Assembly: GCA_964525295.1 (NCBI GenBank)
Contig: CAZGEO010000002.1
Location: forward strand, 324,551-383,677
Length of the DNA: 59,127 nucleotides
Source of the DNA: an uncultured Candidatus Saccharibacteria bacterium
GTDB taxonomy: Bacteria; Patescibacteriota; Dojkabacteria; GCA-002793355
Direction: 5' to 3'
Shown here: positions 14,220-56,697 of the stretch, in pieces
How positions within the stretch are numbered: position 1 is the first letter of the stretch
How the letters are laid out: every line of letters starts with the position of its first letter
Made by a program: the position numbers and the translations under genes
The notes under the pieces: model-generated
The model's input: the letters and a program-made list of their open reading frames with translations, nothing else
What the model was told of the DNA's origin: nothing
Databases searched by the model: none

Positions 14220-14294
14220 GGGGCTGTAGCTCAACTTGGTTAGAGCACCCGCCTGTCACGCGGGTGGTTGCGGGTTCGAATCCCGTCAGCCCCG
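14220..14294 (+). tRNA. tRNA-Asp(GTC), no encoded CCA
   Basis: Acceptor GGGGCTG/CAGCCCC, anticodon arm CCCGC-CTGTCAC-GCGGG, T-arm GCGGG-TTCGAAT-CCCGT, discriminator G. Confidence 0.97.
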
Positions 14295-14295
14295 T

Positions 14296-14341
14296 ATGGG
14301 TGTTTGGCACTGTGTAAACGGTGGCAGACACCCATGTTTTT
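14296..14341 (+). terminator. Intrinsic terminator-like hairpin right after tRNA-Asp
   Basis: ATGGGTGTTTG/CAGACACCCAT stem with inner CACTG/CGGTG, followed by GTTTTT. Confidence 0.8.
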
Positions 14342-14345
14342 ATGT

Positions 14346-14506
14346 AGGGATTCGAGACTCAAGGAGAATGTAGTCACCTACATTCGACGAAGAGCTGGAA
14401 CGCGCCTAAAATCCTTTGAATTTATCAAGTGCAAATTTCGTGACGAGTGTGCGTAACTTTAACCAGGTAGAAGTGTTGCGAATGTAGATTAGTGAGTCCG
14501 AAATTT
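14346..14506 (+). ncRNA. tRNA-associated structured motif, copy 2 (Asp locus)
   Basis: Helices AGGGATT 14346-52/AATCCTT 14410-16, GAATGTAG 14366-73/CTACATTC 14378-85 and AAATTTCG 14433-40/CGAAATTT 14499-14506. Confidence 0.7.
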
Positions 14507-14525
14507 GGTGGGTGTTCGAATCCCG

Positions 14526-14870
14526 TCAGAATTTTGTAAGTAGCAAACTTTTTAAACGTTTTATATTAGTTAAGAATAGATGAACATCTTTTTGTCGGTC
14601 GGAAAGATCGCGAACCTCGTAGGGGTTCGCGTCTTCCTCCTTTACCGATTCTTTAGGAATATCGACGCTTGAGTTAAATACCTGTTTGAATAAATCGTAA
14701 TCAATCATGATTTTTAGTGCGTGAAAAAAATAGGCGATTTGAGCCTCTACAAAGGAAAGTAGCGAGTTATATGATTCTATGAGTTCATCGCGAGAAAGAA
14801 TAACACCGTACTTCTTTTTAAAAAATTGTTGGAGTTTTTGTAATTGAACATCCGTTGGTTTGGCAGACAT
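14526..14870 (-). CDS. Hypothetical protein, possibly a mobile-element remnant
   Basis: N-terminus LQKLQQFFKKKYGVILSRDEL. The TGA stop falls inside the tRNA duplication, and the 3' half spans a DNA hairpin at 14601-14637. Confidence 0.45.
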   Translation of the reverse strand: MSAKPTDVQLQKLQQFFKKKYGVILSRDELIESYNSLLSFVEAQIAYFFHALKIMIDYDLFKQVFNSSVDIPKESVKEEDANPYEVRDLSDRQKDVHLFLTNIKRLKSLLLTKF

Positions 14871-15050
14871 GTGAATTTTGTACGAACACAAAAAACAAGA
14901 AAAACTTTGAAGAGATTCTTAATTAGTTGTGTATGACTTGTTCACTGCCGAAATGTTCTTAATAATTATATCAGAGGTAGTAATTATTGTTAATGTCATT
15001 TCACGACAAAAAGTTGTACAATATTTTTGTTTAAAATTTACTTCAACGAT

Positions 15051-15380
15051 ATGTCCGAAGCAATGCATAAAACATTTTTGTCAGCAATAGACCAAAGAAA
15101 AATAGTCGCTATTAAATTTGATTCAAAGGAAAAAGGGATAATAACAAGATTGTGCATCCCTTTTGACTTTGGACCTTCAAACAGGAAGTTGGAACCAAAT
15201 CCACACAGATATCATTTTTATGATTTGGATAGTCCTGAAGGCAAGCACAATCTCTCAATACTACCTGAGCAATTATTAGAAATTACGTTAACAGAGAAAT
15301 CGTTTTTGCCTGAAGATTACGTAACGTGGAATCCTCCATATAAGTGGCATATAGAAAGGAATTGGGGGAAATATTCGTAA
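15051..15380 (+). CDS. Stand-alone WYL-like domain protein
   Basis: Pattern AIDQRKIVAIKF...TRLCIPFDFG...RYHFYD...LLEITLTEKSF matches the WYL spacing (AI..r..v.i.Y...R.v.P...Y....I..i.....F); no HTH. Start is 15051 or 15063. Confidence 0.55.
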   Translation: MSEAMHKTFLSAIDQRKIVAIKFDSKEKGIITRLCIPFDFGPSNRKLEPNPHRYHFYDLDSPEGKHNLSILPEQLLEITLTEKSFLPEDYVTWNPPYKWHIERNWGKYS

Positions 15381-15386
15381 ACAAAT

Positions 15387-17276
15387 ATGAAACTCAAAAA
15401 AGTAAGAATTATAAACAATAAATCTTGTCGAAAGCTTAGTATAGACTTATCGCAAGATACCCCAGATATATATATTGGCATCAATGATAGTGGAAAAAGT
15501 ACGATTTTTAAGTCCCTAGATTGGTTTTTTGATGAGAGAAAGCAGTTACTGGTAAGTGGAACAATTAATGATATATCGAATTCACCTGTAAATGTTGCTG
15601 AATTCAGTCAATTTATGACCGAAAATGATTGTTTATATTTTGATCTATATACTGAAAGGTCAATTGTGGTTATCTGTGAGTTTGAGATTGAGGCTCAAGA
15701 TATTAGCAATACAAACTTGCAGGCAGATGGTAAGGCGAACTTACTTAAATGGGCAACCGCTACAGCTGACAAATTAGTGATTCTAAAGTACCAAACCGGA
15801 GAAGGGGAACTAAGCGCGAATGGTTACTATGTTTTAGCTGAGGATTATTTTGATAGTACTGAAAATAATTATTTGCAAGCATATTCTGCAAGTGCAACAA
15901 AACTAACTGAATTAATTAGAAAATTTGGTATTACGGCTCAAGATATAGAAAATCAAAACGGTGTTGGAAGGTATACTAATCAAGAAAAGATTAGAGCCAT
16001 CTATAAAAAACTAGAACCTGAATTAAAACAAATTTGGGTCAAATATGATGATTTTTCAAGAAATAAAATATATTTTCCTGAATTTAAATATTTAGATTGG
16101 AATTTTACACTTAAAGACTTGGAGGATATGGCAACATCAGCCATGAAATCAGTTACAGAAAGGTACCTTACCGAAATTCAAACGATTACAAATGAAAAAG
16201 AAAAACAAGCTCAGATTGATGTAAATACCAAATTTAACGAACTTATGCAAGCAACCAAAAGAGAATTACCGTCACATATCAAATCAATACAATCTAGCGT
16301 AAAATTCTCTGTATCGCAATCTGTTCAAGACTTAACAGTTACAAAAGATGGAACAGATGGCGATATTCAAATCAATAATCAAGGTGATGGAATAAAAAGA
16401 CAAATATGGTTTGCTATTCTAAAAGGTGAAGCAACTCCCAGCGCAGCTGCTTCGGAAGTACAGCCTTCAAGAATTTGGAGTTTTGATGAGCCTGAAACTC
16501 ATTTACATCCCGTTGCTCAACGAAATTTATCTCAAATTCTCAGCGATATGACCCATAACGGTTTTCAGATTCTGATTTCTACGCACTCAACAATATTTAT
16601 TGATAAAGCCAATATTGATAAAATTAATCAGGTGTATCTGTCGAGCGGCTACACTTCGATAAACAAATCTACATGTGTGAATGATATTCTAGAGACCTTA
16701 AATGTCAGAAATAGTGATTTTTTAATAAGTGATAAATTTGTTTGTGTAGAAGGTCCAACAGAGTTTGAGCTAATACCAGCAGTCTACAAACTTATTAACA
16801 ATAGGTCGATGAGCGAAGACGGAATAATGTTAATAAATCTGAATGGGTCTGGCAAATACAAAACTATGAAGGAATACCTAACACAGGTTGTCAAAGATTT
16901 TGGTCACACCGAACGCTCATTGTTTTTTCTATTCGATAACGATGTTACATATGAAGGTGCAAATATATTTAAGATAGGAAAATTCGATATTGAAGATAGC
17001 CTACCGAATTCACTTTGGATCCAACTTGTAAAAGATACTTGCGGTATTGATTTGTCAGAAGAATCCATAAATGACGAAATTCGCAGTAAACTTGGTAGTA
17101 CTCAAAGTCAGAAGTTCTATGAATTGCTAGGTGGATATGTAGCAAAAAGTACCAAAGGAGCATTTTATTTACCAAGCAAACCCGAATGTGCAGAACTTAT
17201 AGCCAGCTATATCACTGATACAAGCTTAGTTCCGCCTGAACTTTTAGAGTTTGTTGCAAAATTAAAGGAAGGCTAG
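15387..17276 (+). CDS. OLD-family ATP-dependent nuclease (ABC ATPase plus TOPRIM)
   Basis: Walker A GINDSGKST, signature QGDGIKR, Walker B FDEPETHLHP, ISTHS switch, TOPRIM VEGPTE and FDND, and DIED. Confidence 0.88.
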   Translation: MKLKKVRIINNKSCRKLSIDLSQDTPDIYIGINDSGKSTIFKSLDWFFDERKQLLVSGTINDISNSPVNVAEFSQFMTENDCLYFDLYTERSIVVICEFEIEAQDISNTNLQADGKANLLKWATATADKLVILKYQTGEGELSANGYYVLAEDYFDSTENNYLQAYSASATKLTELIRKFGITAQDIENQNGVGRYTNQEKIRAIYKKLEPELKQIWVKYDDFSRNKIYFPEFKYLDWNFTLKDLEDMATSAMKSVTERYLTEIQTITNEKEKQAQIDVNTKFNELMQATKRELPSHIKSIQSSVKFSVSQSVQDLTVTKDGTDGDIQINNQGDGIKRQIWFAILKGEATPSAAASEVQPSRIWSFDEPETHLHPVAQRNLSQILSDMTHNGFQILISTHSTIFIDKANIDKINQVYLSSGYTSINKSTCVNDILETLNVRNSDFLISDKFVCVEGPTEFELIPAVYKLINNRSMSEDGIMLINLNGSGKYKTMKEYLTQVVKDFGHTERSLFFLFDNDVTYEGANIFKIGKFDIEDSLPNSLWIQLVKDTCGIDLSEESINDEIRSKLGSTQSQKFYELLGGYVAKSTKGAFYLPSKPECAELIASYITDTSLVPPELLEFVAKLKEG

Positions 17277-17456
17277 TATAAACCAGTTTCCACTTCGTCC
17301 CAAAATCCCCTCTCTATTTTATTAAAAAATTGCAATAATCATTTACCCTCTCTGTGATTGTCCATATAATCCTGAGCACCTCTTCGAGGGGTATTGGGAA
17401 GATTGCAGGCAGAAATGTCAGTAGAAGAGAGCAGTCTTAGTTCCACTTCCCCCTAC

Positions 17457-18200
17457 TTATTCCAACCCATCCAACGTATTTTTAATCTTTTCTTTCAATT
17501 CGTTTTGAAATTCGCGACATTTATTCTGTAAATTTGTGCTCAACTCAACAGTTCGCAGGGAAGGCTTTTTTTTTTCAATTATTTTTATTGGAAGCCCTAA
17601 TGCAATATTGAACACTTCTGTGCGACGTAAATTTTGTTCAGGAACTTCGGCTTGAATCATCTTTGATAGTTTAGCCGGTATTAGTCCCGATAGAACATTG
17701 TATACGTTATCCAATGGATGCTTTAAAATTGGAATGAATTCTACCTCAATATCCTTTCGGTAAGTATTTTGGAAACCCAAATCTTCCGCAATTATTGTAT
17801 ACCTGTTTATTGATAAATGATTTGCTTCAGCTGCCTTAACGAGCAAATCTAGTGCAATATGCGCAGCCGTGCCAGCACCAATCTCGTCATCTAAGAAAAG
17901 AATATTTAACGATTTATCAACTTGATTCAGCGCGTTCGTAACATTCGTTAGTAGAGATTCATGATTAACGTCATATCCAATTTTTTCTGCACGAAATATT
18001 GGTAAATATAAGTATTTTGGCGTAGTAACTCTAAGATGTGATAAGGCAATATCATACAAATATGTTATTGAAATTCCAGAATTTGCAGCTCCGATCACTA
18101 AACTGAAGTTCAGACTATCACTCGCTGCTAGTCTTTTTAAGAGTGTTAAAAACATCTTCAATGATTTATTGGCTCTTTCGCTAGTTACATTTTTTTCCAT
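17457..18200 (-). CDS. Type I phosphoribosyltransferase-domain protein
   Basis: PRPP-binding loop ILFLDDEIGAGTAA. Start ATG 18200 follows TGCTAGAAT. Confidence 0.7.
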   Translation of the reverse strand: MEKNVTSERANKSLKMFLTLLKRLAASDSLNFSLVIGAANSGISITYLYDIALSHLRVTTPKYLYLPIFRAEKIGYDVNHESLLTNVTNALNQVDKSLNILFLDDEIGAGTAAHIALDLLVKAAEANHLSINRYTIIAEDLGFQNTYRKDIEVEFIPILKHPLDNVYNVLSGLIPAKLSKMIQAEVPEQNLRRTEVFNIALGLPIKIIEKKKPSLRTVELSTNLQNKCREFQNELKEKIKNTLDGLE

Positions 18201-18256
18201 AAAGTATTCTAGCAGTAATTTTACAACTGTTCTGAATTCTATGTTACCATCTCCTA

Positions 18257-18703
18257 ATGTACGAACTTGATAAAGACAAAGCATTCCTTGTGGCCGTTAA
18301 GGCAATAATTCAGAATTCGAAGAATGAAGTGTTACTATTAAAGGTCAACACAGAACTTCGTGACTCAAACAAATGGGATCTTCCCGGTAGTTTGATGGAA
18401 TTTGACGATAGTGTTGAAACTAGACTAAACAAAGAAGTGCTTGAAGAAACGGGGCTTACATTACAGAACTGGAGGTTGCTTGAGGTATCAGAGACTATAT
18501 TTGAAAGATTTACTTTCGGTGATGAAGTAAAAGATGTTAAAATCATTGTTATCGGCTTCACAACAAATGTTATGGAGGAGAATCTAAAGATTATATTGTC
18601 AGACGAACACGACAATTATAAATGGTTCAGTTGGGAATCATTGCGAGAAATTGAACTTTCTAAGCCAACCCGGGCAATTGTTGGTAAAAATTTGCACGCA
18701 TAG
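18257..18703 (+). CDS. Nudix hydrolase
   Basis: WDLPGS, Nudix box LNKEVLEETGL and LSDEHDNYKW. Confidence 0.88.
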   Translation: MYELDKDKAFLVAVKAIIQNSKNEVLLLKVNTELRDSNKWDLPGSLMEFDDSVETRLNKEVLEETGLTLQNWRLLEVSETIFERFTFGDEVKDVKIIVIGFTTNVMEENLKIILSDEHDNYKWFSWESLREIELSKPTRAIVGKNLHA

Positions 18704-18725
18704 TAAATAGGTATACAATTGCTAG

Positions 18726-19328
18726 ATGTCTGATTTAAGCAAAAAGTACGAACACATTAAGTTTTCTATGTTAACGAAAACAATCGAGCGGGCAGTGTTT
18801 GCTAGCGCAGATTTGGCTCGAAAAGAGAATGTGGCAGAGCATACGTTCATGATGTCACTAATTTTTTGGACACTTAAAGAAGATCTTCTTGAGGAATTTC
18901 CCACTCTAAACGTTAGTAAAGTGTATGACATGATCCAAATTCATGACTTAGCAGAAATAATTACCCAAGATATTTCAACCTGGACACATTTAGATAACAA
19001 CGCAGATAAAGATAAAAATGAAAAAATCGCAAATGAAGAAATTGCGAAAAACCTACCCGAAAAGAAGTCAACTGAATACAACAATTTGATTAAGGAACTG
19101 GAAAGCTTCGCTTCGCTTGAAGCTAAACTCGTTAAGGGTATCGATAGATTATCACCTGCGATTCAGAGAGTGGTAACAAAACAGGGTTGGGTAACTGAAT
19201 CTCATACAGAAGCAGATTTAGACAATATACAACTTCCACGCGTCAACTTTAGTAAAACTCTCTCGTCAATCTATTCGTTATTGAAAATCGAAGCAAAAGA
19301 GCTTGGAATTTTAAAAAATACGAACTAA
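18726..19328 (+). CDS. HD-domain hydrolase (YfbR/HDDC2-like 5'-deoxynucleotidase)
   Basis: ENVAEH, IHDLAE..TQD and LEAKLVKGIDRL motifs. Confidence 0.85.
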   Translation: MSDLSKKYEHIKFSMLTKTIERAVFASADLARKENVAEHTFMMSLIFWTLKEDLLEEFPTLNVSKVYDMIQIHDLAEIITQDISTWTHLDNNADKDKNEKIANEEIAKNLPEKKSTEYNNLIKELESFASLEAKLVKGIDRLSPAIQRVVTKQGWVTESHTEADLDNIQLPRVNFSKTLSSIYSLLKIEAKELGILKNTN

Positions 19329-19390
19329 CAAAAGAATTGAAATATAAAGAAATTACACATTCTGGGTTGGAATAGTATATAATTCGTATT

Positions 19391-19516
19391 ATGGGACAAA
19401 AACCAGAAACAGAAATCAAAACGGCTAAGAATGAAACTTACAACTATATTGTCTCACGTCAGAAAGCCTACGGAAATTCTCGTGTCGAAGGTATACCAGT
19501 TTCTAGAGGTTGCTAA
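19391..19516 (+). CDS. Possible 41-aa small protein (MGQKPETEIK...GIPVSRGC)
   Basis: ATG 19391 lies shortly after TATAAT in the leaderless arrangement; below the ORF track cutoff. Confidence 0.35.
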   Translation: MGQKPETEIKTAKNETYNYIVSRQKAYGNSRVEGIPVSRGC

Positions 19517-19973
19517 AATTATTAGCTATAATTTCAATTCCCTTGAACGTGTCTTCGTATTTCAACAATCCCTTCGCTTCTTCAACGCTACACCATTTAT
19601 ATTCCGTGTGTTCTTCAAGCAATTTTGGTTCAATTCCCGGCTTTAACTCGAACCCATACACATAAGTAGTCATGGTAAGTTGGTCTGTATTTAATGCTCG
19701 GTAATTTGTATTTTCTTTGTTTTTAATCGTTTCGGTAAATTGAAAAATATAGATTTTTTCGTCAACTTTTAAGATACTTTCTCTATCAATATCTGCCTCT
19801 TCTTTGATTTCGCGATAACAGGTTTCTAATACACTTTGATCCGATTCTTCCATCCCACCTGAAATTGAAAGCCAAAACCCACCCTTTTCGGGAATTCGTT
19901 TGAACAATAGAATTTCAAGAGCGGATTCTTTTCGCCTATAAAGAATCGCTAAAATTTGTATTGGGAGACGCAT
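19503..19973 (-). CDS. Nudix hydrolase (NudB-like)
   Basis: LLFKR....GFW..ISGG.E, CYREIKEE and EHTEYKW; TGCTATACT upstream of the start. Confidence 0.88.
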   Translation of the reverse strand: MRLPIQILAILYRRKESALEILLFKRIPEKGGFWLSISGGMEESDQSVLETCYREIKEEADIDRESILKVDEKIYIFQFTETIKNKENTNYRALNTDQLTMTTYVYGFELKPGIEPKLLEEHTEYKWCSVEEAKGLLKYEDTFKGIEIIANNFSNL

Positions 19974-20029
19974 TGGTGAGTATAGCAGGAATATGTTCCA
20001 TATGACATCTAAAAGTACTATACTGTGGC

Positions 20030-20563
20030 ATGAAAAAAACTAATCTTAAGAAGATTCGAATTACCATACTAGGCGCAGGCAGTTCACTTCTATTTTTGTT
20101 TTGTAATGGATTATTATTTGTATTCACTCCCAATTTGTGGAAAATTTTAATCTATGTGATATTACTACTTTCGATTATTAATATTCCACTAGTACTATTG
20201 TCTTTGAGAGAAATCCAATTTATTCAAATGAGCAAATTTAAAAGTATTGCTGCAGTTCTATCTATGCTGCTGATATCATTTGTTCATGCAATATTTTCAT
20301 TTCAAGCAATTACCACAGGCGTAAAGAGTTACACAGGCACATGCGATGTCCGAGTTGCTAGAGTATCATATTATAATAGAATCATTACTGCAGATGGGCA
20401 GCATTACGATACAAAAAATTTAGGTCTGATTAATACTTTAAAAGAATTAAAAAGTTCTAATGAGGGGAATCTCCCGTTTACCTACCAATGTACTAAACCT
20501 GTTACTGTTACCTATTTAACGGGCTTCAATTATATAGTTTCTATACAAATTCAGAATAAGTAA
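20030..20563 (+). CDS. Membrane protein, function unknown
   Basis: Three N-terminal TM segments and a small soluble C-terminal domain with a Cys pair. Confidence 0.7.
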   Translation: MKKTNLKKIRITILGAGSSLLFLFCNGLLFVFTPNLWKILIYVILLLSIINIPLVLLSLREIQFIQMSKFKSIAAVLSMLLISFVHAIFSFQAITTGVKSYTGTCDVRVARVSYYNRIITADGQHYDTKNLGLINTLKELKSSNEGNLPFTYQCTKPVTVTYLTGFNYIVSIQIQNK

Positions 20564-20603
20564 TTCGGGTATTATTTTCGTTCAAATGGTGATTTGTAGT
20601 GTT

Positions 20604-21593
20604 TTACTGTAAAACAAGAAGAACCAATAATAGCGTTGTAATCACAAACGATGCAGCCATTCCAACCATGAACATGGTTTTGAACGATTTTGTTGAGAAA
20701 ACCTTAACTTTATCAAAATCAACGGCGTTTGCTGCTGCAACCATTTCGGCTTCGCTCTTAATTTTACTAGAATGGCCTGGGCTGTCAGATAAAAAGTGTT
20801 GAGCATAAGGGAAGCACACAACTTGTGATGGCTTTTCGGCAAATAGACCAGGGAACCAACTGTTTTGATCGAAATGAACATCTTTTAATGGAATTGTTAG
20901 TGCCTTTTCAACTTCGCAGGGGTCAAATTTTAAGGCAAATATATCCTCTTGTGTGCCATCCAGTAAACTCCCGTACCCAATCGAGAGATTTCCCTCTAGC
21001 CATAAGCGTTGGTCAAGATTTCTCATCTTACCGACCTCGACATTAAAGTCGAATACTAATGAACGAGATGCGTCATCGCGGGGGACATCAACAAAAACTC
21101 TTCCTCGATGGTCTATGGTGTGAACTGCTTTTGAACTGTTTGGTGCTCTTAAACCGTACTTCTTGTCGTGGCTGATTGTATTAGAATCGTAGTCAACAAT
21201 AATCCAACTGAGAAGTCCCGTACTTTCATCTTCGGCAATCAGGTAAAACTCGACGCGCATTCCCCAGAAGGCGCTTGTGTGCGCGCGAACGCAACCAAAT
21301 ATACAGTAGTATTTGGGTTCATCTGTATCAAAAATTCTTGTTTTGATCAGCTTAAATCCTTTTGGTAAAAGTCTGTTTGCCTGTTCAAGATCAGTAATTT
21401 CGTAACATAGAAAGACGCTGTAGGGCTCAACAACAAAGCCCATAAAAGGGGTTTGTTTCGCAGAGTTGGCGATCAATTTATTTTGTATTGCGGTTGGAAG
21501 TAAACTATTGAACTGCTGAATAAAGTGCAGTGAACCAACATCGATTGGGTTAATTAGTCTTTCAATTCCTTTTGTAAATTTTGGATTGCTCAT
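20604..21593 (-). CDS. Conserved-looking hypothetical protein with C-terminal TM anchor
   Basis: 329-aa ORF rich in aromatics; C-terminal hydrophobic helix. Confidence 0.75.
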   Translation of the reverse strand: MSNPKFTKGIERLINPIDVGSLHFIQQFNSLLPTAIQNKLIANSAKQTPFMGFVVEPYSVFLCYEITDLEQANRLLPKGFKLIKTRIFDTDEPKYYCIFGCVRAHTSAFWGMRVEFYLIAEDESTGLLSWIIVDYDSNTISHDKKYGLRAPNSSKAVHTIDHRGRVFVDVPRDDASRSLVFDFNVEVGKMRNLDQRLWLEGNLSIGYGSLLDGTQEDIFALKFDPCEVEKALTIPLKDVHFDQNSWFPGLFAEKPSQVVCFPYAQHFLSDSPGHSSKIKSEAEMVAAANAVDFDKVKVFSTKSFKTMFMVGMAASFVITTLLLVLLVLQ

Positions 21594-21684
21594 GAGTAAA
21601 TATTTCAGATGATAATCACTATAACAAATCAGCTAGCTGTTGTCATGAGTTTCTTTTTATCTCTCATGTAGGTATACTTATTTT

Positions 21685-21867
21685 ATGGCAAACAAGAATA
21701 ACAACTATTATTATCTTGATATTAAGTTGACCGATTTGAAAATCGTTTCCCTCGGAATTACTGAAACAGCAACGCTTAGTGGCGATACTGAGAAACCAGA
21801 AATTCATCGATTGTTTTTAACCAAAGGGCAGTATAATAAACTTAAGGCAAAGCTTGAAACCAAGTAA
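21685..21867 (+). CDS. Small hypothetical protein (60 aa)
   Basis: TATACT just upstream; 3 nt from the next gene, ending HRLFLTKGQYNKL. Confidence 0.65.
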   Translation: MANKNNNYYYLDIKLTDLKIVSLGITETATLSGDTEKPEIHRLFLTKGQYNKLKAKLETK

Positions 21868-21870
21868 AAA

Positions 21871-22230: not shown

Positions 22231-22379
22231 CAACGTATGAGGAATTGAAAAATTCGACCTTAGATATTTCCGAGATGACGAAATCGTTGATCAATTACAC
22301 CGACTGGTCAGAGCAGTTGTAGTTAGAGATGTTGCCTATCCCTCTTAACAATTATCTTTCCGGTGCTACAATAGACTTT

Positions 22380-24120: not shown

Positions 24121-24126
24121 GTATTT

Positions 24127-24155
24127 TTGACGACTTGCAAATACAAGAGTATAGT
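24127..24155 (+). promoter_or_regulatory. Sigma70 promoter of the PAS-kinase operon
   Basis: TTGACG 24127-24132, 17 nt, TATAGT 24150-24155; implies a ~90-nt 5' UTR. Confidence 0.7.
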
Positions 24156-45453: not shown

Positions 45454-45454
45454 T

Positions 45455-48587: not shown

Positions 48588-48643
48588 ACCTCTGAACCAG
48601 CTACTATCTGTGAGAAAGCTATTTATGCTTACACACGGGCAGA

Positions 48644-48991: not shown

Positions 48992-49017
48992 TCAATAACT
49001 TATCACACGAATTCTGA

Positions 49018-49617
49018 CTACAAATGCGTAAAGGTGCGACGATGAATAGGTGACATACCTAGCTTTTTCAAGGCATCGTAATGAGCTACAGTACCATACC
49101 CTTTATGATTAGCAAAACCATAACCAGGGTATTCCTGATCTAACTTGACCATAAGATCATCACGATAGACCTTCGCAATGATTGATGCTGCAGCAATCGA
49201 ATAAAAATTAAGATCACCGTGATTATATTGATATGTTTTACTCAGTATTGGAATTGTTGCTGTTTCTCCATCCATCAGTAATACTTCTGGAGAGAATGGC
49301 AATGACCAGTATGCACGTAACATTGCAATATATGTTGCCTTTCTAATACCAAAGCTATCAATTTCTTCAGAAGAAGCAATACCTATCGCATAATAGGGGA
49401 GAGTATTCTTCAATTCTTCTGCGTAGCGATTACGCTGCAATGCAGAAAGGGTCTTTGAGTCTCGAATTTTCGGAAGATAATCGTTTACTGAATTTACCAC
49501 AGCAATTCCTGCAACAACTGGTCCGGCTAAACAACCTCTACCAACTTCATCAACACCGGCAACAAAGGAAAAACGTTGTAATAAATCAAACTCAATAGAG
49601 AATGACGGAAACTGCAT
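49018..49617 (-). CDS. rnhB: Ribonuclease HII
   Basis: AGVDEVGRG.LAGPV, DSK, LMDG, SIAAASIIAKV.RD and HKGYGT. Confidence 0.96.
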   Translation of the reverse strand: MQFPSFSIEFDLLQRFSFVAGVDEVGRGCLAGPVVAGIAVVNSVNDYLPKIRDSKTLSALQRNRYAEELKNTLPYYAIGIASSEEIDSFGIRKATYIAMLRAYWSLPFSPEVLLMDGETATIPILSKTYQYNHGDLNFYSIAAASIIAKVYRDDLMVKLDQEYPGYGFANHKGYGTVAHYDALKKLGMSPIHRRTFTHL

Positions 49618-50117
49618 TAAGATGCAGTTTCAACTGATGCATCTTGAGGAACTGCAACAGCCTTCTTGTCTTTCGCTTTAACTTTCAATGCTTGCTTACC
49701 AACTCGTTTTCTCAAATAGAAGAGTTTTGCTCGACGTGGAGCACCTTTTGCAAGAATTTCTAATTTCTCTAAAACTGGTGAATACAATGGAATAATTTTT
49801 TCAACTCCAACGTTATCTGCACCAATTTTTCTTACAACAAACTTCTTGTTTAAACCATAACCTTTCATTGCAACTACGACACCGCGGAATGGTTGCGATT
49901 TTAGGTTATCCATCTCATTGAAAACTTTACCTGCATCTTCGGCTTTTTTCTTTGCCTGCTTTTCTGCAGTTGTTAAGGTTTTCTGTACTTTTTTCAAAAC
50001 GATAATTTTTGTGTGTGCAACAACAGTATCGCCAACGCGAACTGATTTTCGAACTTCCATATCTGGTAATTCTTTCGCAAACTCAGCTGCGACTTTGTTC
50101 ATAACTTCAGCATTCAT
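49617..50117 (-). CDS. rplS: 50S ribosomal protein L19 with an internal insertion
   Basis: VGDTV, F.GVVVA, F.VRKIG..GVEK..PLYSP and RRAKLFYLR motifs. Confidence 0.95.
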   Translation of the reverse strand: MNAEVMNKVAAEFAKELPDMEVRKSVRVGDTVVAHTKIIVLKKVQKTLTTAEKQAKKKAEDAGKVFNEMDNLKSQPFRGVVVAMKGYGLNKKFVVRKIGADNVGVEKIIPLYSPVLEKLEILAKGAPRRAKLFYLRKRVGKQALKVKAKDKKAVAVPQDASVETAS

Positions 50118-50134
50118 GCCGTAATAGTATCATA

Positions 50135-51247
50135 TTATTTTGTCGAGGTCAACGCACTTGCCACGATTTGTATCAACTTTTCTTGTTGCTTAATTTTTAG
50201 TTCTGGTCCTAAAGGCAAAAGTATCAATTTATGCTTTTTTGACCATTCACAATCATCGAGCTGAGAAACTACAAAAAAGCCTTTTTGCCGCGCTTTATCA
50301 ATGAATTCCTGCGCAACTTTGGGTTTCATAATTAGCGGAAATCCACGCAAATTACCGTAGCTAGCCACCTGTGTGAAGCCGTCTTCATCAGACTTTGAAT
50401 AATCATGAACACCAAGCCACACTTGCTTATTGCACTGTATTATTCTTGAGAGTTTATCAAAATATTTAATCGATTGTGCAATTTTGATTTCAACAACTTT
50501 TTTTACTGCAATTCTATCGTATAAATGGAGAAATATTCTCCAAAGAGATGCAGGCTGAAACGAATCTCCTATTAAATCATTGTGCTTTTTTAATGTATTC
50601 TCTGCAATAATAGCTAAGCGCGTCGATCTAAGTAATTTGGCAAACCATAATTCAAATAAATATACATGCCAAAGCCAAAAAGCACGAATAAAATACGAGT
50701 ATGGATAAGTATTCTTCCCTCTTTCTCGGGCATTTCTCGTATATATTGCGATAGCACCTGTAAACGGCGTTACTTTTCTAAAGCTATTAAGAATTAAACT
50801 TCTATCATTTTCTGGAAAGAATTCACCCGAGGGATACGGAATTCGATGTACCATATCTGTTACAAGTAGCGTTCTTATATGCAATGAACGAGCGACTGAA
50901 AAGGGTAGTGTAAAACCCATTCCTTCAGGAGAGAAATTAATAACAATATCGGGCTGTAACTCGTCAATCAACTTCCTGACTTCTACTTCATTAGCAACTA
51001 AATCTTTACCGACTTCGTATAATTTCACGCGATATCCATGTGAAATCATATTCTCAACTACGTCTGTGCAATAAAAGCTGGGAACCAAAATCAGTGAGTT
51101 TTTTCGGTATCCTAATCTTGGGAGTAAATCCCACAAAGCATCTTCCCACGATAAGTACACTTCACGAACAATTCCATTCGGCCAAACTTGCTTTTCTTTT
51201 TGCAAGTACGCAAATATGTTGTACGGTTGCAAGAAATACGGAGTCAC
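50135..51247 (-). CDS. Divergent DegT/DnrJ-like PLP-fold protein
   Basis: LVPSFYC.DV, Asp in LVTDMVH and Lys in NSFRK. Confidence 0.6.
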   Translation of the reverse strand: MTPYFLQPYNIFAYLQKEKQVWPNGIVREVYLSWEDALWDLLPRLGYRKNSLILVPSFYCTDVVENMISHGYRVKLYEVGKDLVANEVEVRKLIDELQPDIVINFSPEGMGFTLPFSVARSLHIRTLLVTDMVHRIPYPSGEFFPENDRSLILNSFRKVTPFTGAIAIYTRNARERGKNTYPYSYFIRAFWLWHVYLFELWFAKLLRSTRLAIIAENTLKKHNDLIGDSFQPASLWRIFLHLYDRIAVKKVVEIKIAQSIKYFDKLSRIIQCNKQVWLGVHDYSKSDEDGFTQVASYGNLRGFPLIMKPKVAQEFIDKARQKGFFVVSQLDDCEWSKKHKLILLPLGPELKIKQQEKLIQIVASALTSTK

Positions 51248-51317
51248 TACTAATCATCAATTACTAATTATCAATTTTCGATTATAGCGCAAATTACTTT
51301 CGTGCTAAAATCTATCA

Positions 51318-53174
51318 ATGGAAGTTATCAAGAAGTTATCACCAGAAGTCGTTAACCAAATTGCTGCCGGAGAAGTTGTTGAACGTCCAGCATCAGTATT
51401 AAAGGAATTAATGGAAAATGCAATCGATGCTGGAGCTACTGTAGTAGACGTCTTTCTTGAGCAGGGCGGGATAACAAAGATCGAAGTCCGCGATAATGGG
51501 AAGGGTATTGCGAAAGAAGACCTTGCGAATGCATTTGAACGATATGCAACGAGTAAACTACATAAGATTGAAGATCTTCAAGAACTTCTCACCTATGGAT
51601 TTCGTGGAGAAGCACTTGCTGCAATAGCCTCAGTTAGTAAAGTTACCCTAACATCAAAACAGAAAGAATCCGACCCTAATCAAATCCATGCAACCGCTGG
51701 GCAACTTTCAGAAATTCAGCCGACTTCACGATCAAATGGTACAACAATAACAATTCAAGAGCTATTCTATAATGTTCCAGCACGCCAGAAATTCCTAAAA
51801 TCGGAAGATACTGAATATAAGTACCTTTTAGAAGTTTTTCAAGCGTTCGCACTACTCAATGGAAAAATCCATTTTTCACTAACTCATAATGATAAATTGA
51901 TTTATACGCTCCCCGCGACTCAAACTGAAAAATTCCCAATAGAACGAGTATCGCAAATATTTAAAGTCACCAAAGAATTACTTTTACCAGTTTCGCACGA
52001 AGAATATGGAATCTCTATTCAAGGAGTTGCATTACATCCAAAAGCGCTAGGAATGCAAGCACGGTTTACTAAGTTATTCGTTAATAACCGACCTATTGAC
52101 GACAAAGGTCTCATGAAGGCCATCCAGCAAGGTGTTGCAGGATACATACCAGATACTTACAAAGCATCTGGTATTTTTGGAATTACTGTCGCTTCAGACC
52201 AGGTCGATGTAAACGTTCACCCTCGAAAATTAGAGGTAAAATTTATTAATCCGTTTAGAATATTTAGTGCACTAACTCATGCTATCAAGGCGACTTACGC
52301 AGGTTTAGTTGATGTCGAAATGAGAAATAGAGCAGAGCAAGCTGTTTCATTTACTCCACAAAATGCACCGTATGTCTCACCGGCTGCGACGCCTAGATTT
52401 GAACAATCTACTGATAAATGGCAACGCAAAGAAAATAACGCGTACGACAGACTCCGAAACACTCAACAGCCATTATTTTTTTCTGACACATCACAGGCAT
52501 TTATTCCGCCAGAAAGAAACGACGCGAAGTCATCAGAAATTCCAGATTTTGTTAAAGAACAAGCTCGTGATTCGCTTTCAGAAGCTACAATTACCCCAAT
52601 ATTAGGACGTTACATCACGGTAGCCTTTATGGATGAAGTATGGGTTGTCGATCAACACGCAGCTGCAGAAAGAATACGTTACGAAAAATTCAAAAATTCT
52701 TATTTGGAAGGCACTCTATTAGAACAACAGCCTCTTCTTGCACCAATTTCGATTCACTTGTCTGAACAAGAAGCAACAATTGCAAAGAAACATGAATCGC
52801 TATTCATGCGTTTAGGTTATTCCATCTCATTTGTTGAAAATTCATTGCTTATTCACGCAATACCAACGTTCATGCAAAATGCTGACATTGAGAATATGCT
52901 CCGAGATTCGATTGCTGAATTAGTCGAACATGACGACCTCTTTTTAGAGCCAATAATTGGCGATTTTCAAACAAATAAAGATTTGAGCCTCATTATTGCC
53001 ACCATGGCCTGCCACAATTCAGTACGTATGAATCAGCGAATTTCGCCACAAGAGGCGAGAAGCATTATGACCGATTTACTGAAGTGCCAGATTCCTTTTG
53101 CCTGCCCTCATGGCAGAAGAGTCGTATGGAGGCTACAAAAAGAAGAAATTGACAAACAATTCATGCGAACTTAG
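51318..53174 (+). CDS. mutL: DNA mismatch repair endonuclease MutL
   Basis: NQIAAGEVVERP, ATSK, GFRGEALA, VDVNVHP.K, endonuclease motif DQHAAAERIRYE, ACH and CPHGR. Confidence 0.97.
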   Translation: MEVIKKLSPEVVNQIAAGEVVERPASVLKELMENAIDAGATVVDVFLEQGGITKIEVRDNGKGIAKEDLANAFERYATSKLHKIEDLQELLTYGFRGEALAAIASVSKVTLTSKQKESDPNQIHATAGQLSEIQPTSRSNGTTITIQELFYNVPARQKFLKSEDTEYKYLLEVFQAFALLNGKIHFSLTHNDKLIYTLPATQTEKFPIERVSQIFKVTKELLLPVSHEEYGISIQGVALHPKALGMQARFTKLFVNNRPIDDKGLMKAIQQGVAGYIPDTYKASGIFGITVASDQVDVNVHPRKLEVKFINPFRIFSALTHAIKATYAGLVDVEMRNRAEQAVSFTPQNAPYVSPAATPRFEQSTDKWQRKENNAYDRLRNTQQPLFFSDTSQAFIPPERNDAKSSEIPDFVKEQARDSLSEATITPILGRYITVAFMDEVWVVDQHAAAERIRYEKFKNSYLEGTLLEQQPLLAPISIHLSEQEATIAKKHESLFMRLGYSISFVENSLLIHAIPTFMQNADIENMLRDSIAELVEHDDLFLEPIIGDFQTNKDLSLIIATMACHNSVRMNQRISPQEARSIMTDLLKCQIPFACPHGRRVVWRLQKEEIDKQFMRT

Positions 53175-54202
53175 CCGTTCACTTTCTGTTTGTGCTTGAC
53201 CGGTACCAATACTACACCAATCGAATTGCCTGCAAATCTACCTGCTGCAATGTCAGGATTTCCTTTTCTATCATTCGAGAGGAAGTTGATTGCATTTTGG
53301 GCCAAAATACTGAATTCAGTCAATTCAAGATTTTCATTCCTCACTCTAGTTTCTAGATATTTTTGAAATAATTGCCCTAGATCATTTATTATGTCGAAAG
53401 TTGTAACAGGCAAGTGGAGTGCTTTTGCCGTTGCAAGAAGAACTGCATTAATATTACCTGTTTCCATTTTCTGTGTTAATCTAAATTGCAAGTCGCTTGA
53501 TTCTAGAATTTGATCGAGTAATTGGGGAGTGCGTGCTTCAGAAACATTAAGATTATCATATCTTACAAAATCAATCTCACTGCTTACGACATAAGGAATT
53601 ACGTGTAATGAATGATTATGGAGTAATTCACCAATTTCGCGAATTCTTTGACGCGTAACTGTTCTGTCATATTTTTTCACATGATCACAATCAATTACGT
53701 AATACAATAATAATTGTTTTAGTAAGTCAGGTGAAACTTCAATACTATAATCCCTACGATTGAGTTGTTCTTGCACAATGACAGAAATTGCAAATGCCAC
53801 GTTATTTAAAACCTCGTTGGTGACTCCATCATAATTTACATTGCCCGACAATGCTTCTAAATAGGGAAGTCTACAAGCTTCTTCAATTTTCTTACAGGCA
53901 AAATAAGTTCTCATATATTTCGATAAATCTGGTTCTAGAGGCATTGTTGGTAAAGGATAAGAAATCTGGTTAAAATTGATTTTATCGATTTCTGCTTCAA
54001 TCATGGCAAATTCTTCTGGCATTGTTTTTTCAAATTTAATAACTTGATCTCTCAGATACTTTTCTGTTGTAGTATTTTTTCTTTCTTGATTTGAGCTTTT
54101 GGGCACTAGACTAATTTCTGCCTGAATATTTGTTATTGTCATAATTGCATAAAAGAATATAAGTCCTATATTATGCTTTAGTTTTCTGGAAAATCTTGAC
54201 AT
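53171..54202 (-). CDS. Hypothetical protein
   Basis: 343-aa ORF convergent with mutL; start is uncertain (54202 or 54142). Confidence 0.65.
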   Translation of the reverse strand: MSRFSRKLKHNIGLIFFYAIMTITNIQAEISLVPKSSNQERKNTTTEKYLRDQVIKFEKTMPEEFAMIEAEIDKINFNQISYPLPTMPLEPDLSKYMRTYFACKKIEEACRLPYLEALSGNVNYDGVTNEVLNNVAFAISVIVQEQLNRRDYSIEVSPDLLKQLLLYYVIDCDHVKKYDRTVTRQRIREIGELLHNHSLHVIPYVVSSEIDFVRYDNLNVSEARTPQLLDQILESSDLQFRLTQKMETGNINAVLLATAKALHLPVTTFDIINDLGQLFQKYLETRVRNENLELTEFSILAQNAINFLSNDRKGNPDIAAGRFAGNSIGVVLVPVKHKQKVNG

Positions 54203-54262
54203 AGCAATAATTTATCTCAAAATCAAACCTACGATGAATTTTGGCGTTCAAAATCGTTGCTC

Positions 54263-54291
54263 TTGAAAACTACTCTTAACTTTGCGATAAT
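54263..54291 (+). promoter_or_regulatory. Sigma70 promoter of tRNA-Leu
   Basis: TTGAAA 54263-54268, 17 nt, extended TGC-GATAAT 54283-54291. Confidence 0.7.
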
Positions 54292-54299
54292 TCACTTAT

Positions 54300-54382
54300 G
54301 CCGGGGTGGTGGAATGGCAGACACGCTACCTTGAGGTGGTAGTGCTCGAAAGGGTGTGGAGGTTCGACTCCTCTCCTCGGCA
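54300..54382 (+). tRNA. tRNA-Leu(GAG), no encoded CCA
   Basis: Acceptor GCCGGGG/CCTCGGC, anticodon arm CTACC-TTGAGGT-GGTAG, long variable arm, T-loop TTCGACT. Confidence 0.96.
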
Positions 54383-54614
54383 TTTTAGAAAAGATTTCAT
54401 AAACTTCTGATTAACAAGTAACTTATGGAATGTTTTCTAAATACCAAAATGTGAGGAGTTGAAACTTGAGGAAAACGTAAGTGACCTTACGGTTGACGAG
54501 AGCGGGGCTGCGCCTAACAACCTCTGAAAATTCGATGTGCAATTTCAGTGATGAATCAATGAAAGAAGATGAATCCTGAAATTGGTGGGTTGCCGACTCC
54601 TCTCCTCGGCATTT
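54383..54614 (+). mobile_element. Miniature tRNA-Leu-associated element bounded by a tRNA 3' duplication
   Basis: The 21-bp CGACTCCTCTCCTCGGCATTT at 54365-54385 is repeated at 54594-54614, 229 bp away, and encloses the structured motif. Confidence 0.7.
54453..54583 (+). ncRNA. tRNA-associated structured motif, copy 3 (Leu locus)
   Basis: Helices GAGG..TT 54453-60/AACCTC 54519-24, CGTAAG 54476-81/CTTACG 54486-91 and AATTTCAG 54541-48/CTGAAATT 54576-83. Confidence 0.7.
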
Positions 54615-54750
54615 CTTATTTTGTTTTTCCTTCACATTTTTTTTCTCAACTATCATTCGGTTTTACGCTCTTACAAGTCAATCCTTGGTGTTGCGCACAA
54701 AACAATAAAAATGAGTGAAGCGAAAACAAGAAGAAGAGAAGTTAAGTTGT

Positions 54751-54777
54751 GATGAGAGCGGGGCTACTCCTAACATC
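54751..54777 (+). repeat. Partial extra copy of the motif core
   Basis: GATGAGAGCGGGGCTACTCCTAACATC is 23/27 identical to 54495-54521. Confidence 0.7.
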
Positions 54778-54784
54778 AGGAACT

Positions 54785-55714
54785 TTAATAGTCGTCGTCT
54801 ACTGGGAATTCCCGGTGTTTAGCATGTCCTGATTTACCTTTTTTCTTTGTTATTTTTACATCTTGTGGGGTATTCCTCTCTTTGCCTTCTGAAGCTAGTA
54901 ATTGCTGCACTTGATCTTTAATCACGGGTTCGAAACTTGGTTTGGCCTGCAAAGCTTTTAGGAATGTACGAGCTTGTGAATTACCAGGATTTCTTTCTAA
55001 GAAATCTTCAAGTAAATCTACCAATTGTGGTTCAATTTGAGGATACAGTTTTTTAAAGGAGTCATCGAATGGCGCCTCAAATACATTAACAATAGACAAA
55101 ATAACTTGCTTGCCGCATCTCACAATATATGCCTGAATATTTCTAATATTCTGCGCTAATAATGAGTTGTTTTTCGAATTATTCAAATTTAATGAAAAAA
55201 TTGCCCATGACTTTCTTCGCAATTCATCGTTAAGACTCCACTCATTTTGAGGTTTTCGCCCTAAATCATTCATACCTGAAACTATCGAGCTGAGTTCACT
55301 CTCATCCAGAACTTTAGTACAAAGATCAATTGGTGTTACGGCAAAAGAAGCTGCATCATTATAATTGTTTAACGGAATATCTCTAAAAAGTGCTGCTGCA
55401 ATTGTTGCCTTTCCGCTCTCAACATCAGACTGAAACATTATCCATGCACCTTGGCGAGCTAATGATTCAAACGTGTCAAGTGCTACTCTTACTGAAGATT
55501 CATCTCCATGTTGAATTGCCTTTTTTTCTGAATTTTGTAGTTGGGAGAATACATTTGCATCATTCTTTCGTCTGATTCTAGCTATCTGTTCATCAAATGA
55601 TAAATCTCCTAATCCGATTACAAATGCAGACAATCCTTGACGTGCATTCTCAATATGCATAGCATTAATTTTTGCTTGACCAGCTTCTTTTCTAGCTGTT
55701 CTATTTCGAGTCAT
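54785..55714 (-). CDS. Hypothetical protein
   Basis: About 309 aa. Start moved to ATG 55714 (TACAAT 5 nt upstream) because the longer start overlaps the tRNA-Pro promoter. Confidence 0.7.
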   Translation of the reverse strand: MTRNRTARKEAGQAKINAMHIENARQGLSAFVIGLGDLSFDEQIARIRRKNDANVFSQLQNSEKKAIQHGDESSVRVALDTFESLARQGAWIMFQSDVESGKATIAAALFRDIPLNNYNDAASFAVTPIDLCTKVLDESELSSIVSGMNDLGRKPQNEWSLNDELRRKSWAIFSLNLNNSKNNSLLAQNIRNIQAYIVRCGKQVILSIVNVFEAPFDDSFKKLYPQIEPQLVDLLEDFLERNPGNSQARTFLKALQAKPSFEPVIKDQVQQLLASEGKERNTPQDVKITKKKGKSGHAKHREFPVDDDY

Positions 55715-55776
55715 ATTGAATTGTACTATAGGCAAGACTTTCCTGCCACAAAAAATATGATATAATTCACTCATAT

Positions 55777-55850
55777 CGGGGCGTAGTTCAGTTGGCTAGA
55801 ACGCACGGTTTGGGACCGTGAGGTCGCGAGTTCGAGTCCCGCCGCCCCGA
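55777..55850 (+). tRNA. tRNA-Pro(TGG), no encoded CCA
   Basis: Acceptor CGGGGCG/CGCCCCG, anticodon arm CACGG-TTTGGGA-CCGTG, T-loop TTCGAGT; promoter TGATATAAT at 55758-55766. Confidence 0.96.
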
Positions 55851-56697
55851 TATTTTATTTTCAAACCCTTAAAAACATTGATAACTCGATGTTATCAAAA
55901 TGTGTATCACATTGTCATCCGTTTTTCTGTCAAAAATTACAAACGATGATTTAGCTAATTGGTTGGGCATTACTTTGCGTTCGTAAAAGTTCAAATCCTG
56001 TCGTCCCCCATTTTTTTGCTATAATCAAATATGAATAAATGGAGAAAGCAATCATCTAAAATACTATTCACTCACCCGCGTATCACTTTAGTTGAAGATA
56101 CTGTCACAATTTCAAATGGTGATGAAATTAAGTATCTAAAATATCTAGAAAAAGGTAATGCTGTTACTTTAATTTGTAGAAATAAAGAAGGGTTATTCTT
56201 ACTAACAAAGGAATTCTATTATCCAATAGATGATGTAGTAATAGGATTTCCAGGTGGTGGTGTATCTGAAAATGAATCTATTGTTGATGGCGCATTAAGA
56301 GAGTTAAAAGAGGAAGCGGGTTTAGTATCTAATGATATTACGAGTCTAGGTTTTTTCACTATGAATGCAAGAAGGACATCTATGAAAAATTATGTCTATT
56401 TAATTCAAGATTTCCAACAAAGTGATATAAAAAGAGACCCTGAGGAAGATCAGTTCGAGCTAATATGGTTTTCACAGAATGAAATTCAAAAGAACATACA
56501 GGAAAGTAAAATATTTCATAGCTACACTCTTGCTGCGTGGTCGTTATATTTAGCTCATCTTAATTAATAATATTTGCTTCGGAAAGTTATAAAATTCTGG
56601 CAAAATTGCCACTTGCCTTTTAACTCGTCAAAAAGGAATAATAACTTACTCAAGAGTTCGGAAATTAGTTCGTAACGAGTCCCGCCGCCCCGATATT
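55851..56697 (+). mobile_element. tRNA-Pro-associated mini-island carrying a Nudix gene
   Basis: The 22-bp CGAGTCCCGCCGCCCCGATATT at 55833-55854 is repeated at 56676-56697, 843 bp away. Confidence 0.7.
56031..56567 (+). CDS. Nudix hydrolase (ADP-ribose pyrophosphatase-like)
   Basis: FPGGG, Nudix box ALRELKEEAGL and DPEED; TGCTATAAT 5 nt upstream of the ATG. Confidence 0.9.
   Translation: MNKWRKQSSKILFTHPRITLVEDTVTISNGDEIKYLKYLEKGNAVTLICRNKEGLFLLTKEFYYPIDDVVIGFPGGGVSENESIVDGALRELKEEAGLVSNDITSLGFFTMNARRTSMKNYVYLIQDFQQSDIKRDPEEDQFELIWFSQNEIQKNIQESKIFHSYTLAAWSLYLAHLN

Follow-up and report, generated by a model that had tools for sequence, protein, structure and literature searches.

The inserts described here lie downstream of the tRNA genes in a 59-kb stretch of contig CAZGEO010000002.1 (positions 1–59127, hereafter the window), from an uncultured bacterium of the Dojkabacteria. 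They are non-coding, except for a NUDIX gene at tRNA-Pro, and at Asp, Leu and Pro each ends in a copy of the 3' part of the tRNA that precedes it. Those at Asp, Leu and Thr are homologous to one another and appear to fold as one single-stranded module closed by a 9-bp helix, in which an internal segment of the insert pairs with the duplicated tRNA fragment. With a confidence somewhat short of even, we regard the copies as one lineage-specific family of very small non-coding insertion elements 3' of tRNA genes, present in differing states of decay; that they are mobile we infer from the layout of the loci.

tRNA genes and duplicated 3' ends

The window contains four tRNA genes, all on the + strand, on which ARAGORN and Rfam agree:

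228–303, + strand: tRNA-Thr(CGT)
14219–14295, + strand: tRNA-Asp(GTC), with a promoter-like site (TTGACA-17-TAAAAT) upstream
54299–54383, + strand: tRNA-Leu(GAG)
55776–55851, + strand: tRNA-Pro(TGG)

The 3' part of three of them is repeated downstream: 16 bp for Asp (GTTCGAATCCCGTCAG, 14274–14289 and 14514–14529), 21 bp for Leu (CGACTCCTCTCCTCGGCATTT, 54365–54385 and 54594–54614) and 22 bp for Pro (CGAGTCCCGCCGCCCCGATATT, 55833–55854 and 56676–56697). A preliminary description of this DNA had listed these repeats and placed the start of each second copy in the T-loop. Their coordinates proved exact and their occurrence far above chance, the expected number of such repeats being 2e-7 to 1e-11 per tRNA within 3 kb, and the second copies do start within the T-loop, at G53 for Asp and at C56 for Leu and Pro. 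The Leu and Pro repeats extend 3–4 nt beyond the tRNA end, and the Thr fragment is reduced to TCGAAT (601–606). A copy of at least 12 nt of the tRNA 3' part within 3 kb downstream was found for three of the four tRNAs of the window versus one of 46 tRNAs in the loci of relatives (80 from other Dojkabacteria genomes, together with the contigs L003 and L004, ~1.3 Mb; Fisher p = 8e-4).

An assembly artefact, which the preliminary description had named as a possible refutation, is excluded as the source of the repeats because other contigs span the loci. Logan contig L002, from an independent sample and with ~96–97% DNA identity to the window, carries tRNA-Asp, element and repeat in one piece, and contig L088, 100% identical to the window, covers most of the Leu element and the entire Pro unit.

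Homology between the inserts

The Asp and Leu inserts are homologous along their whole length (sequence alignment and nhmmer), and a profile built from these two copies recovered a third one behind tRNA-Thr at 458–573 (nhmmer E=5e-11). The homology of the Asp, Leu and Thr copies covers ~150–190 nt with a mean identity of 66%, and in all three it has the same left edge, (A/G)TGT followed by the first helix strand. In a covariance model, the three window copies and the L002 copy score 147–168 bits. Together with the spacer that separates them from the tRNA and the tRNA end that they supply, the Asp and Leu units measure 240 bp and 229 bp respectively. The cores and spacers are:

458–606, + strand: Thr-linked core copy (nhmmer; covariance model 146.9 bits; fold z = -0.9)
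14296–14341, + strand: spacer between tRNA-Asp and core, a long G+C-rich hairpin with a T run, terminator-like, without homology to the spacers of the other copies
14342–14529, + strand: Asp core copy, starting at the ATGT boundary (nhmmer, covariance model, folding)
54384–54448, + strand: spacer between tRNA-Leu and core, an A+T-rich hairpin unrelated to the Asp spacer
54449–54614, + strand: Leu core copy (nhmmer, covariance model, folding)

The end motif in front of the duplicated tRNA fragment is GGTGGGTG in the Asp core and GGTGGGTTGC in the Leu core; it has also been given in the form GGTGGGTNNN, and its conserved part is GGTGGGT. The preliminary description had seen this motif at Asp, Leu and Pro and proposed one element family at tRNAs of unrelated identity. 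At Asp and Leu the motif is now part of a full-length homology, and the idea of one family stands for Asp, Leu and Thr; at Pro the resemblance is weaker and consists of the end motif only. That description contained neither the homology of the inserts nor the Thr copy, nor the 9-bp helix between the internal segment and the duplicated tRNA fragment.

A conserved fold that matches the tRNA

The consensus fold consists of a 9-bp closing helix (P1), a short CTC/GAG helix, a hairpin (P3) and a 9-bp helix (P5) that surrounds a conserved internal loop (UGAYGA… / …UGARUC) and a variable hairpin, with 90% of cells paired over the three copies. P3 reads ATGTAG/CTACAT in Asp (14368–14383), CGTAAG/CTTACG in Leu (54476–54491) and CAACAATAA/TTATTGTTG, a 9-bp hairpin, in Thr. 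P5 is formed in Asp by CAAATTTCG (14432–14440) and CGAAATTTG (14499–14507) and in Leu by CAATTTCAG (54540–54548) and CTGAAATTG (54576–54584). Pairs changed on both sides number 14, against 5.4±1.7 in column shuffles (0 of 500 shuffles reach 14), and they fall to 0–4 when the partners are slid by 1–3 columns. About 11 cells are G·U pairs, which the opposite strand would turn into A·C mismatches, and the + strand folds 5–10 kcal/mol lower than the opposite one; therefore, the folded strand is the strand of the tRNA.

In P1, the 5' edge of the core contributes an internal segment and the 3' edge the duplicated tRNA fragment, and the sequence of the helix varies along with the identity of the tRNA:

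P1 of Asp: 5' strand GGGATTCGA (14347–14355); 3' strand TCGAATCCC (14516–14524), within the 16-bp repeat 14514–14529
P1 of Leu: 5' strand GAGGAGTTG (54453–54461); 3' strand CGACTCCTC (54594–54602), within the 21-bp repeat 54594–54614; one G·U
P1 of Thr: 5' strand GGGGTTCGA (462–470); 3' partner in cis decayed to TCGAAT

The Thr copy, with an intact 5' half and a decayed 3' half, thus retains its anti-T-arm segment, which is complementary to TCGAATCCC of tRNA-Thr itself with one G·U. Of 14 positions in the Leu segment, 12 agree with the reverse complement of the entire tRNA-Leu T-arm, and the predicted binding of this segment to tRNA-Leu (-21.8 kcal/mol) is stronger than to the other three tRNAs (-11.4 to -17.6 kcal/mol); for the Asp and Thr segments, the predictions gave no discrimination among the similar T-arms of Asp, Thr and Pro. 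As modelled, the fold would recreate as a duplex the part of the tRNA gene immediately 3' of the junction.

Searches with Rfam 15 returned only the four tRNAs above the gathering threshold in the whole window and nothing credible at E≤10 in the loci. Several known structured RNAs were considered and rejected. A weak match to YrlA (E=1.5) is caused by the genuine tRNA T-arm; a group I intron gives no Intron_gpI match even at E≤10, and only three helices and a closing stem are present; for a hammerhead the series UGAUGA…GAA is there, but with G at C3 and stem III missing; the CUGA of a possible box C/D k-turn sits within a 9-bp helix; and a T-box was ruled out on sequence grounds.

Proposed recombination in the T-loop and its rivals

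An intact tRNA on the left and repeats that start in the T-loop are the arrangement that recombination in the T-loop with an incoming tRNA 3' end would give. An intact copy forms a module of ~170–190 nt that would fold as a single strand, the tRNA strand, with P3, P5, GGTGGGT and the closing helix P1, in which the internal segment complementary to the T-loop and T-stem would pair with the duplicated tRNA fragment from about C56. Such elements may spread through recombination specific to one site of the T-loop, about T55/C56, with a recombinase supplied from elsewhere and acting in trans, which would make them non-autonomous. Each insertion would provide a replacement 3' end for the tRNA, and the old end would be displaced downstream along with any older copies. 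The element would be recognised as a folded single strand (compare integron attC and CTX-phage attP) or as RNA, and not as an ordinary duplex attP, because the fold rebuilds the T-loop/T-stem duplex of the target and compensatory changes preserve the helices of the fold. The account that we favour, as a credible one that falls a little short of probable, is a non-autonomous family, recognised in its folded form, which an enzyme with its gene elsewhere would recombine at about T55/C56.

Several points weigh against it. The spacers between tRNA and core (46, 65 and 154 nt) have no mutual similarity and could be native tRNA flanks, which would place the element downstream of the tRNA rather than in it. 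The Asp fragment ends within the acceptor strand, between GTCAG and AATTTT, and because it stops there the Asp locus would not be a simple attR; to read it as a simple integration product requires the assumption of a later deletion. The covariation comes from three sequences, its statistics are weak and it is suggestive but not proof, and the folding z-scores of the core alone are modest (Asp -2.3, Leu -2.1 and the decayed Thr copy -0.9). The one close relative, L002, has the same filled Asp site as the window, and no second genome occupied differently came to light. Finally, a recombinase that copes with different tRNAs and with copies of only 66% identity is hypothetical; for tRNA targets, neither such an enzyme nor a single-stranded intermediate is known.

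The preliminary description had offered as an alternative that the loci are eroded islands. On this view ordinary integrase-bearing islands or prophages would have inserted themselves into the T-loop, and the core would represent a small RNA gene or attP arm from their far end that survived internal deletion. The Leu and Pro repeats, which run from the T-loop to or past the tRNA end, are the textbook product of a tyrosine integrase, the Pro unit holds a gene and merely a short end motif, and behind the Asp locus comes a defence-type island that includes an OLD nuclease. Descriptions of tRNA islands such as the tycheposons mention tandem remnants and scattered partial tRNAs (10.1101/2020.12.28.424599). 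On the other hand, three or four copies share one starting point of homology (ATGT), to the left of which their sequences are unrelated, and random internal deletions are disfavoured because they would not result in such a common boundary. Compensatory changes in P3, P5 and P1 are unexpected for protein-binding attP arms, no integrase pseudogene was detected in the window, and one family is found at all four tRNAs while integrases are normally specific for one. The island alternative is a poor fit for Asp and Leu, whose inserts each form, in their entirety, one conserved, co-varying structured unit with ATGT as a sharp left boundary common to both, and may apply to Pro; for the family as a whole it is unlikely, though it deserves to be taken seriously.

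An RNA-guided insertion would read the same layout differently. The element would lie downstream of an untouched tRNA, the spacer would be native flank, and the 3' 16–22 nt would be a guide copied from the tRNA and carried on a scaffold RNA, with the effector encoded elsewhere. A scaffold followed by a 3' segment of 16–22 nt identical to the tRNA is the layout observed, GTT precedes the segment in the tRNA for Leu and Pro, the spacers are unrelated among copies, and the Asp segment, ending at 16 nt in the acceptor strand, is more in keeping with a fixed-length guide than with a displaced end of the tRNA. Between C56 and the left boundary of the element lie 65 bp (Asp) and 67 bp (Pro), but 84 bp (Leu) and 173 bp (Thr). 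Moreover, the putative guide is locked in a 9-bp helix with a matched internal segment, the resetting of both guide and anti-guide for a new tRNA is left without explanation, no guide-RNA family of Rfam matches, and no TnpB, IscB, Cas12k, Tns or IS110-type protein was found in the window. We therefore consider RNA guidance quite unlikely.

Enzymes and transcription signals

The search for enzyme genes covered the open reading frames (ORFs) of the window. Nearly all non-overlapping ORFs were scanned, and those without annotation were also compared with PHROGs, NCBIfam and PADLOC. Pfam, used in direct scans and through the gene tables of the Logan contigs, revealed no integrase, transposase, TnpB/IscB, IS110-type recombinase or reverse transcriptase among the scanned ORFs, and neither Cas12k nor Tns was found among them; the missing integrase of the preliminary description is borne out for these ORFs of the window. 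The unannotated ORFs adjoining the elements gave no PHROGs or PADLOC match and in NCBIfam only a sub-threshold SecE for ORF 701–1300, and no relationship of the flanking ORFs to one another was found.

These scans bear on a retro-mobile origin of the type of short interspersed nuclear elements (SINE-like), in which the element would be co-transcribed with the tRNA and its tRNA-derived 3' end would anneal to the nicked tRNA gene and prime reverse transcription by an enzyme encoded elsewhere. The variable length of the duplication (16–22 nt), the structure conserved on the transcribed strand and the target sequence at the 3' end of the unit would suit such a route. However, no reverse transcriptase was found in the window, where the sole RVT_3/RNase_H match is a 142-aa RNase HI, and a simple target-site duplication leaves unexplained why the remainder of the tRNA comes after the first repeat copy. 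A retro-mobile origin thus appears highly improbable. Other insertion modes were tried and dropped: a simple target-site duplication as such, again on account of the rest of the tRNA behind the first repeat copy; the GTTC target of IS91, which fits Asp alone; and IS200/IS605, which leaves the repeat unexplained.

No promoter-like site was seen between tRNA and core, and the Asp spacer resembles a terminator. Both features fit an element that brings a tRNA end plus terminator, and they argue mildly against an abundant RNA.

Decay, a possible tandem remnant and the composite Pro locus

Further pieces related to the elements lie behind tRNA-Leu and tRNA-Pro:

54707–54799, + strand: probable older decayed copy, 5' half only (alignment; nhmmer E=0.09; covariance model not significant)
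55900–55988, + strand: degenerate element-like stretch, with the left edge AAAATGTG as in the Leu copy, then …GATGATTTAGCTAATTGGTTGGGC…GTTCGTAA
55989–56010, + strand: 3' fragment of a different tRNA, absent from the window (GTTCAAATCCTGTCGTCCCCCA)
56031–56567, + strand: ORF for a NUDIX hydrolase of 178 aa (Pfam PF00293, 1.4e-16)
56654–56697, + strand: Pro right end, motif GAGTTCGGAAATTAGTTCGTAA (56654–56675) and the 22-bp tRNA-Pro repeat (56676–56697)

The stretch at 54707–54799 (AAAATGAG…GATGAGAGCGGGGCTACTCCTAACA), ~95 nt behind the Leu element and cut by the 3' end of ORF 54785–55774 on the - strand, is probably, if weakly supported, an older copy of the element behind the Leu copy. At Pro the end motif again terminates in GTTCGTAA, like the degenerate stretch before the foreign fragment, and folding gave no significant structure for either Pro piece. 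The NUDIX ORF, enclosed by two fragment-bearing junctions, is possibly cargo. The layout at Pro is the expected result if a unit that carried a gene and a foreign tRNA fragment recombined at the point where an earlier copy met its Pro fragment; it is a single case. The half-copy at Leu, the decayed 3' half at Thr, the foreign fragment and NUDIX gene at Pro and the occupation of all four tRNAs are signs of repeated insertion and decay.

NUDIX hydrolase genes number four in the window (12164–12643, 18257–18703, 19503–19973 and 56031–56567), several of them near tRNA loci, and L003 and L004 likewise carry NUDIX genes near tRNA-Asp.

Distribution

The YvcK/CofD protein encoded beside tRNA-Asp has homologues annotated as Candidatus Dojkabacteria (WS6, candidate phyla radiation); the closest is at 98% protein identity and the rest at ~59% or less, and because of this gap the lineage is isolated in public data. 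The family was found only in the window genome and in its L002 relative. The covariance model gave no further match in 1.33 Mb consisting of the window with 83 further loci, 80 of them from other Dojkabacteria genomes, the profile search of ~1.3 Mb of other Dojkabacteria loci (the 80 with L003 and L004) detected no copy, and the 46 tRNAs in these loci showed neither an element copy nor a comparable repeat. Two distant relatives, one of them L003, have a tRNA-Asp without the element. The pattern GCCNAANANCCT-N13-GTGCAANTTNNGTGANGA had no match in genome, metagenome and viral collections, patterns for the end motif and for a second part of the core had none in viral contigs, and blastn against phages and plasmids found no relative. 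Three metagenome matches of the second core pattern, lacking tRNA or model support, were set aside as chance.

This distribution bears on the idea that the core is a host-functional, non-mobile RNA made from the 3' trailer of the tRNA and specific for its own tRNA through the anti-T-arm segment, with a role, for instance, in processing, quality control or protection of the integration site. Such an RNA would agree with the location on the tRNA strand without a separate promoter-like site, with the presence of one at every tRNA of the window and with the predicted ability of the anti-T-arm segment to pair with the tRNA or its gene. Against it, the Thr copy and the Pro pieces are decayed, none is found near the 46 tRNAs of the relatives' loci, a terminator-like hairpin sets the core apart from tRNA-Asp, and the half-copy, like the foreign tRNA fragment, resembles a history of insertions and not the upkeep of a gene. 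A host RNA of this kind seems improbable. Because homologous copies occur at different tRNAs and in different stages of decay, with a possible tandem remnant and a foreign tRNA fragment at Pro, all in a single lineage, the sequences indicate what would be a family of selfish insertions and not a gene that the host maintains.

The Logan contigs of the runs SRR11582162 and SRR11582163 are short, fall within the window and are identical (100%) to it. Contig breaks at 14495, 54379 and 59102 recur in both runs, and one at 54462 is confined to a single run. The Asp element contains the break at 14495 and the Leu element that at 54462, and the break at 54379 falls in the 3' end of tRNA-Leu. The recurring breaks hint at alternative sequence paths in the population. 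The positions 14495, 54379 and 54462 do not coincide with those expected of empty-site or inversion junctions, and we base no conclusion on them.

A different kind of element occupies the same tRNA in L003, a distant member of the Dojkabacteria, in which the gene of a large serine recombinase overlaps the 3' end of tRNA-Asp and adjoins a gene for a rolling-circle Rep (REP_ORF2-G2P; 1246–4706). It has no long direct repeat.

Surroundings of the elements

A stretch resembling a defence island (14526–19973) lies behind the Asp element. It comprises a 121-aa ORF whose stop codon falls inside the tRNA fragment, a 117-aa ORF, a weak PRTase-like protein, two NUDIX proteins, an HD protein and, at 15387–17276, an OLD-family ATPase/TOPRIM nuclease (PADLOC Old 2e-39). 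L002 departs from the window beyond ~14970, which marks a variable spot. At the start of the window the stop codon (236–238) of a FtsW/RodA-like ORF (2–238) falls inside the 5' end of tRNA-Thr. Behind the Pro unit a long, signal-peptide-like ORF with internal repeats (56820–59127) runs off the window end, and on the opposite strand a 130-aa ORF (57479–57871), repetitive and of low complexity, is probably spurious. The cumulative GC skew climbs to ~38 kb and then drops (turning point at ~36–38 kb of the window), which suggests a replication terminus or origin inside the window. The genes for tRNA-Thr and tRNA-Asp are located before this turn and those for tRNA-Leu and tRNA-Pro after it, and the orientation of the elements therefore tracks the tRNA and not the direction of replication.

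Comparison with known systems

Tyrosine integrases with a crossover in the T-loop serve tRNA-targeting prophages and genomic islands. The present loci share with such elements the intact tRNA followed by the insert, the repeat of the tRNA 3' part from the T-loop on and the presumed downstream displacement of older insertions. Unlike them, they have no integrase, the Asp and Leu units of ~230–240 bp are each one structured non-coding module, one family occurs at four tRNAs, and the Asp and Thr fragments are not full tRNA ends. A second parallel is found in the cis-mobilizable elements (CIMEs) of streptococcal integrative and conjugative elements (ICEs), where attachment-site repeats also bound DNA without recombination genes and the enzyme is presumed to act in trans. 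CIMEs are kilobase-sized deletion derivatives of a known autonomous parent, whereas here no parent is known and the unit is a conserved fold, not a set of leftover genes.

The attC sites of integrons have a poorly conserved sequence and a conserved single-strand fold, with a closing stem of ~9–11 complementary nt from two boundaries that contains the exchange point; they measure 57–142 nt, carry conserved AAC/GTT boxes and extrahelical bases, and recombine with attI beside intI (PMC2727003). Similarly, the element fold is closed by the 9-bp P1 from two boundaries, its helices co-vary while the sequence is variable, and the NUDIX gene at Pro is bounded by fragment-bearing sites like the gene of a cassette. 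It differs from attC in the size of the fold (170–190 nt), in its partner, a tRNA T-loop, and in boundaries that follow the tRNA and not a fixed R''/R' consensus; additionally, neither IntI nor attI was found in the window. The attP of CTX-type phages is another folded single strand, recombined by XerCD at dif. Both there and, by prediction, here a single-strand fold recreates a duplex that mimics the chromosomal target. However, the target of the phages is dif and the element a phage genome, whereas here it is a tRNA and the element is known from sequence alone.

Guide RNAs of mobile elements comprise the omega-RNA of TnpB/IscB, the bridge RNA of IS110 and the homing CRISPR RNA (crRNA) of type V-K systems, which targets tRNA genes. 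The elements resemble them in having a structured scaffold with a short target-matching segment beside a tRNA gene. Unlike guide RNAs, they are accompanied by no effector gene in the window and by no Rfam match, their matching segment is paired internally, and their two target-matched segments overlap on the target. With respect to omega-RNA in particular, no tnpB or iscB is adjacent and the 3' segment is paired in P1 and not free; with respect to the bridge or seek RNA of IS110/IS1111, whose elements insert without a long duplication, no ORF for a DEDD-type recombinase was found in the window and repeats of 16–22 bp are present. The closing helix is shared with retron non-coding RNA, whose reverse transcriptase was not found in the window.

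Significance

Mobile DNA classically lands at tRNA genes, as a rule with each integrase serving a single tRNA. In the window, every tRNA is followed by members of one family of tiny elements that lack a recognisable recombinase of their own, each copy with a fold matched to its own tRNA. A further step beyond the favoured account is speculative and on present grounds rather unlikely: a folded RNA or single-stranded DNA with an anti-T-arm segment of 9–14 nt would rebuild or recognise the T-loop/T-stem of the chosen tRNA, and one enzyme would insert the element, and cassettes such as the NUDIX gene, behind any matching tRNA. Were this true, it would be a target-programmable system, integron-like or bridge-RNA-like, that exploits the universal T-loop. 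If the elements do not move, they would represent an undescribed structured RNA linked to tRNAs. If they do move, a short matched stretch of nucleic acid, and not a protein, would encode the choice of target, and the family would provide a link between tRNA islands, integron attC sites and the recently found RNA-guided recombinases, as well as a rare description of mobile-element biology in the little-known candidate phyla radiation.

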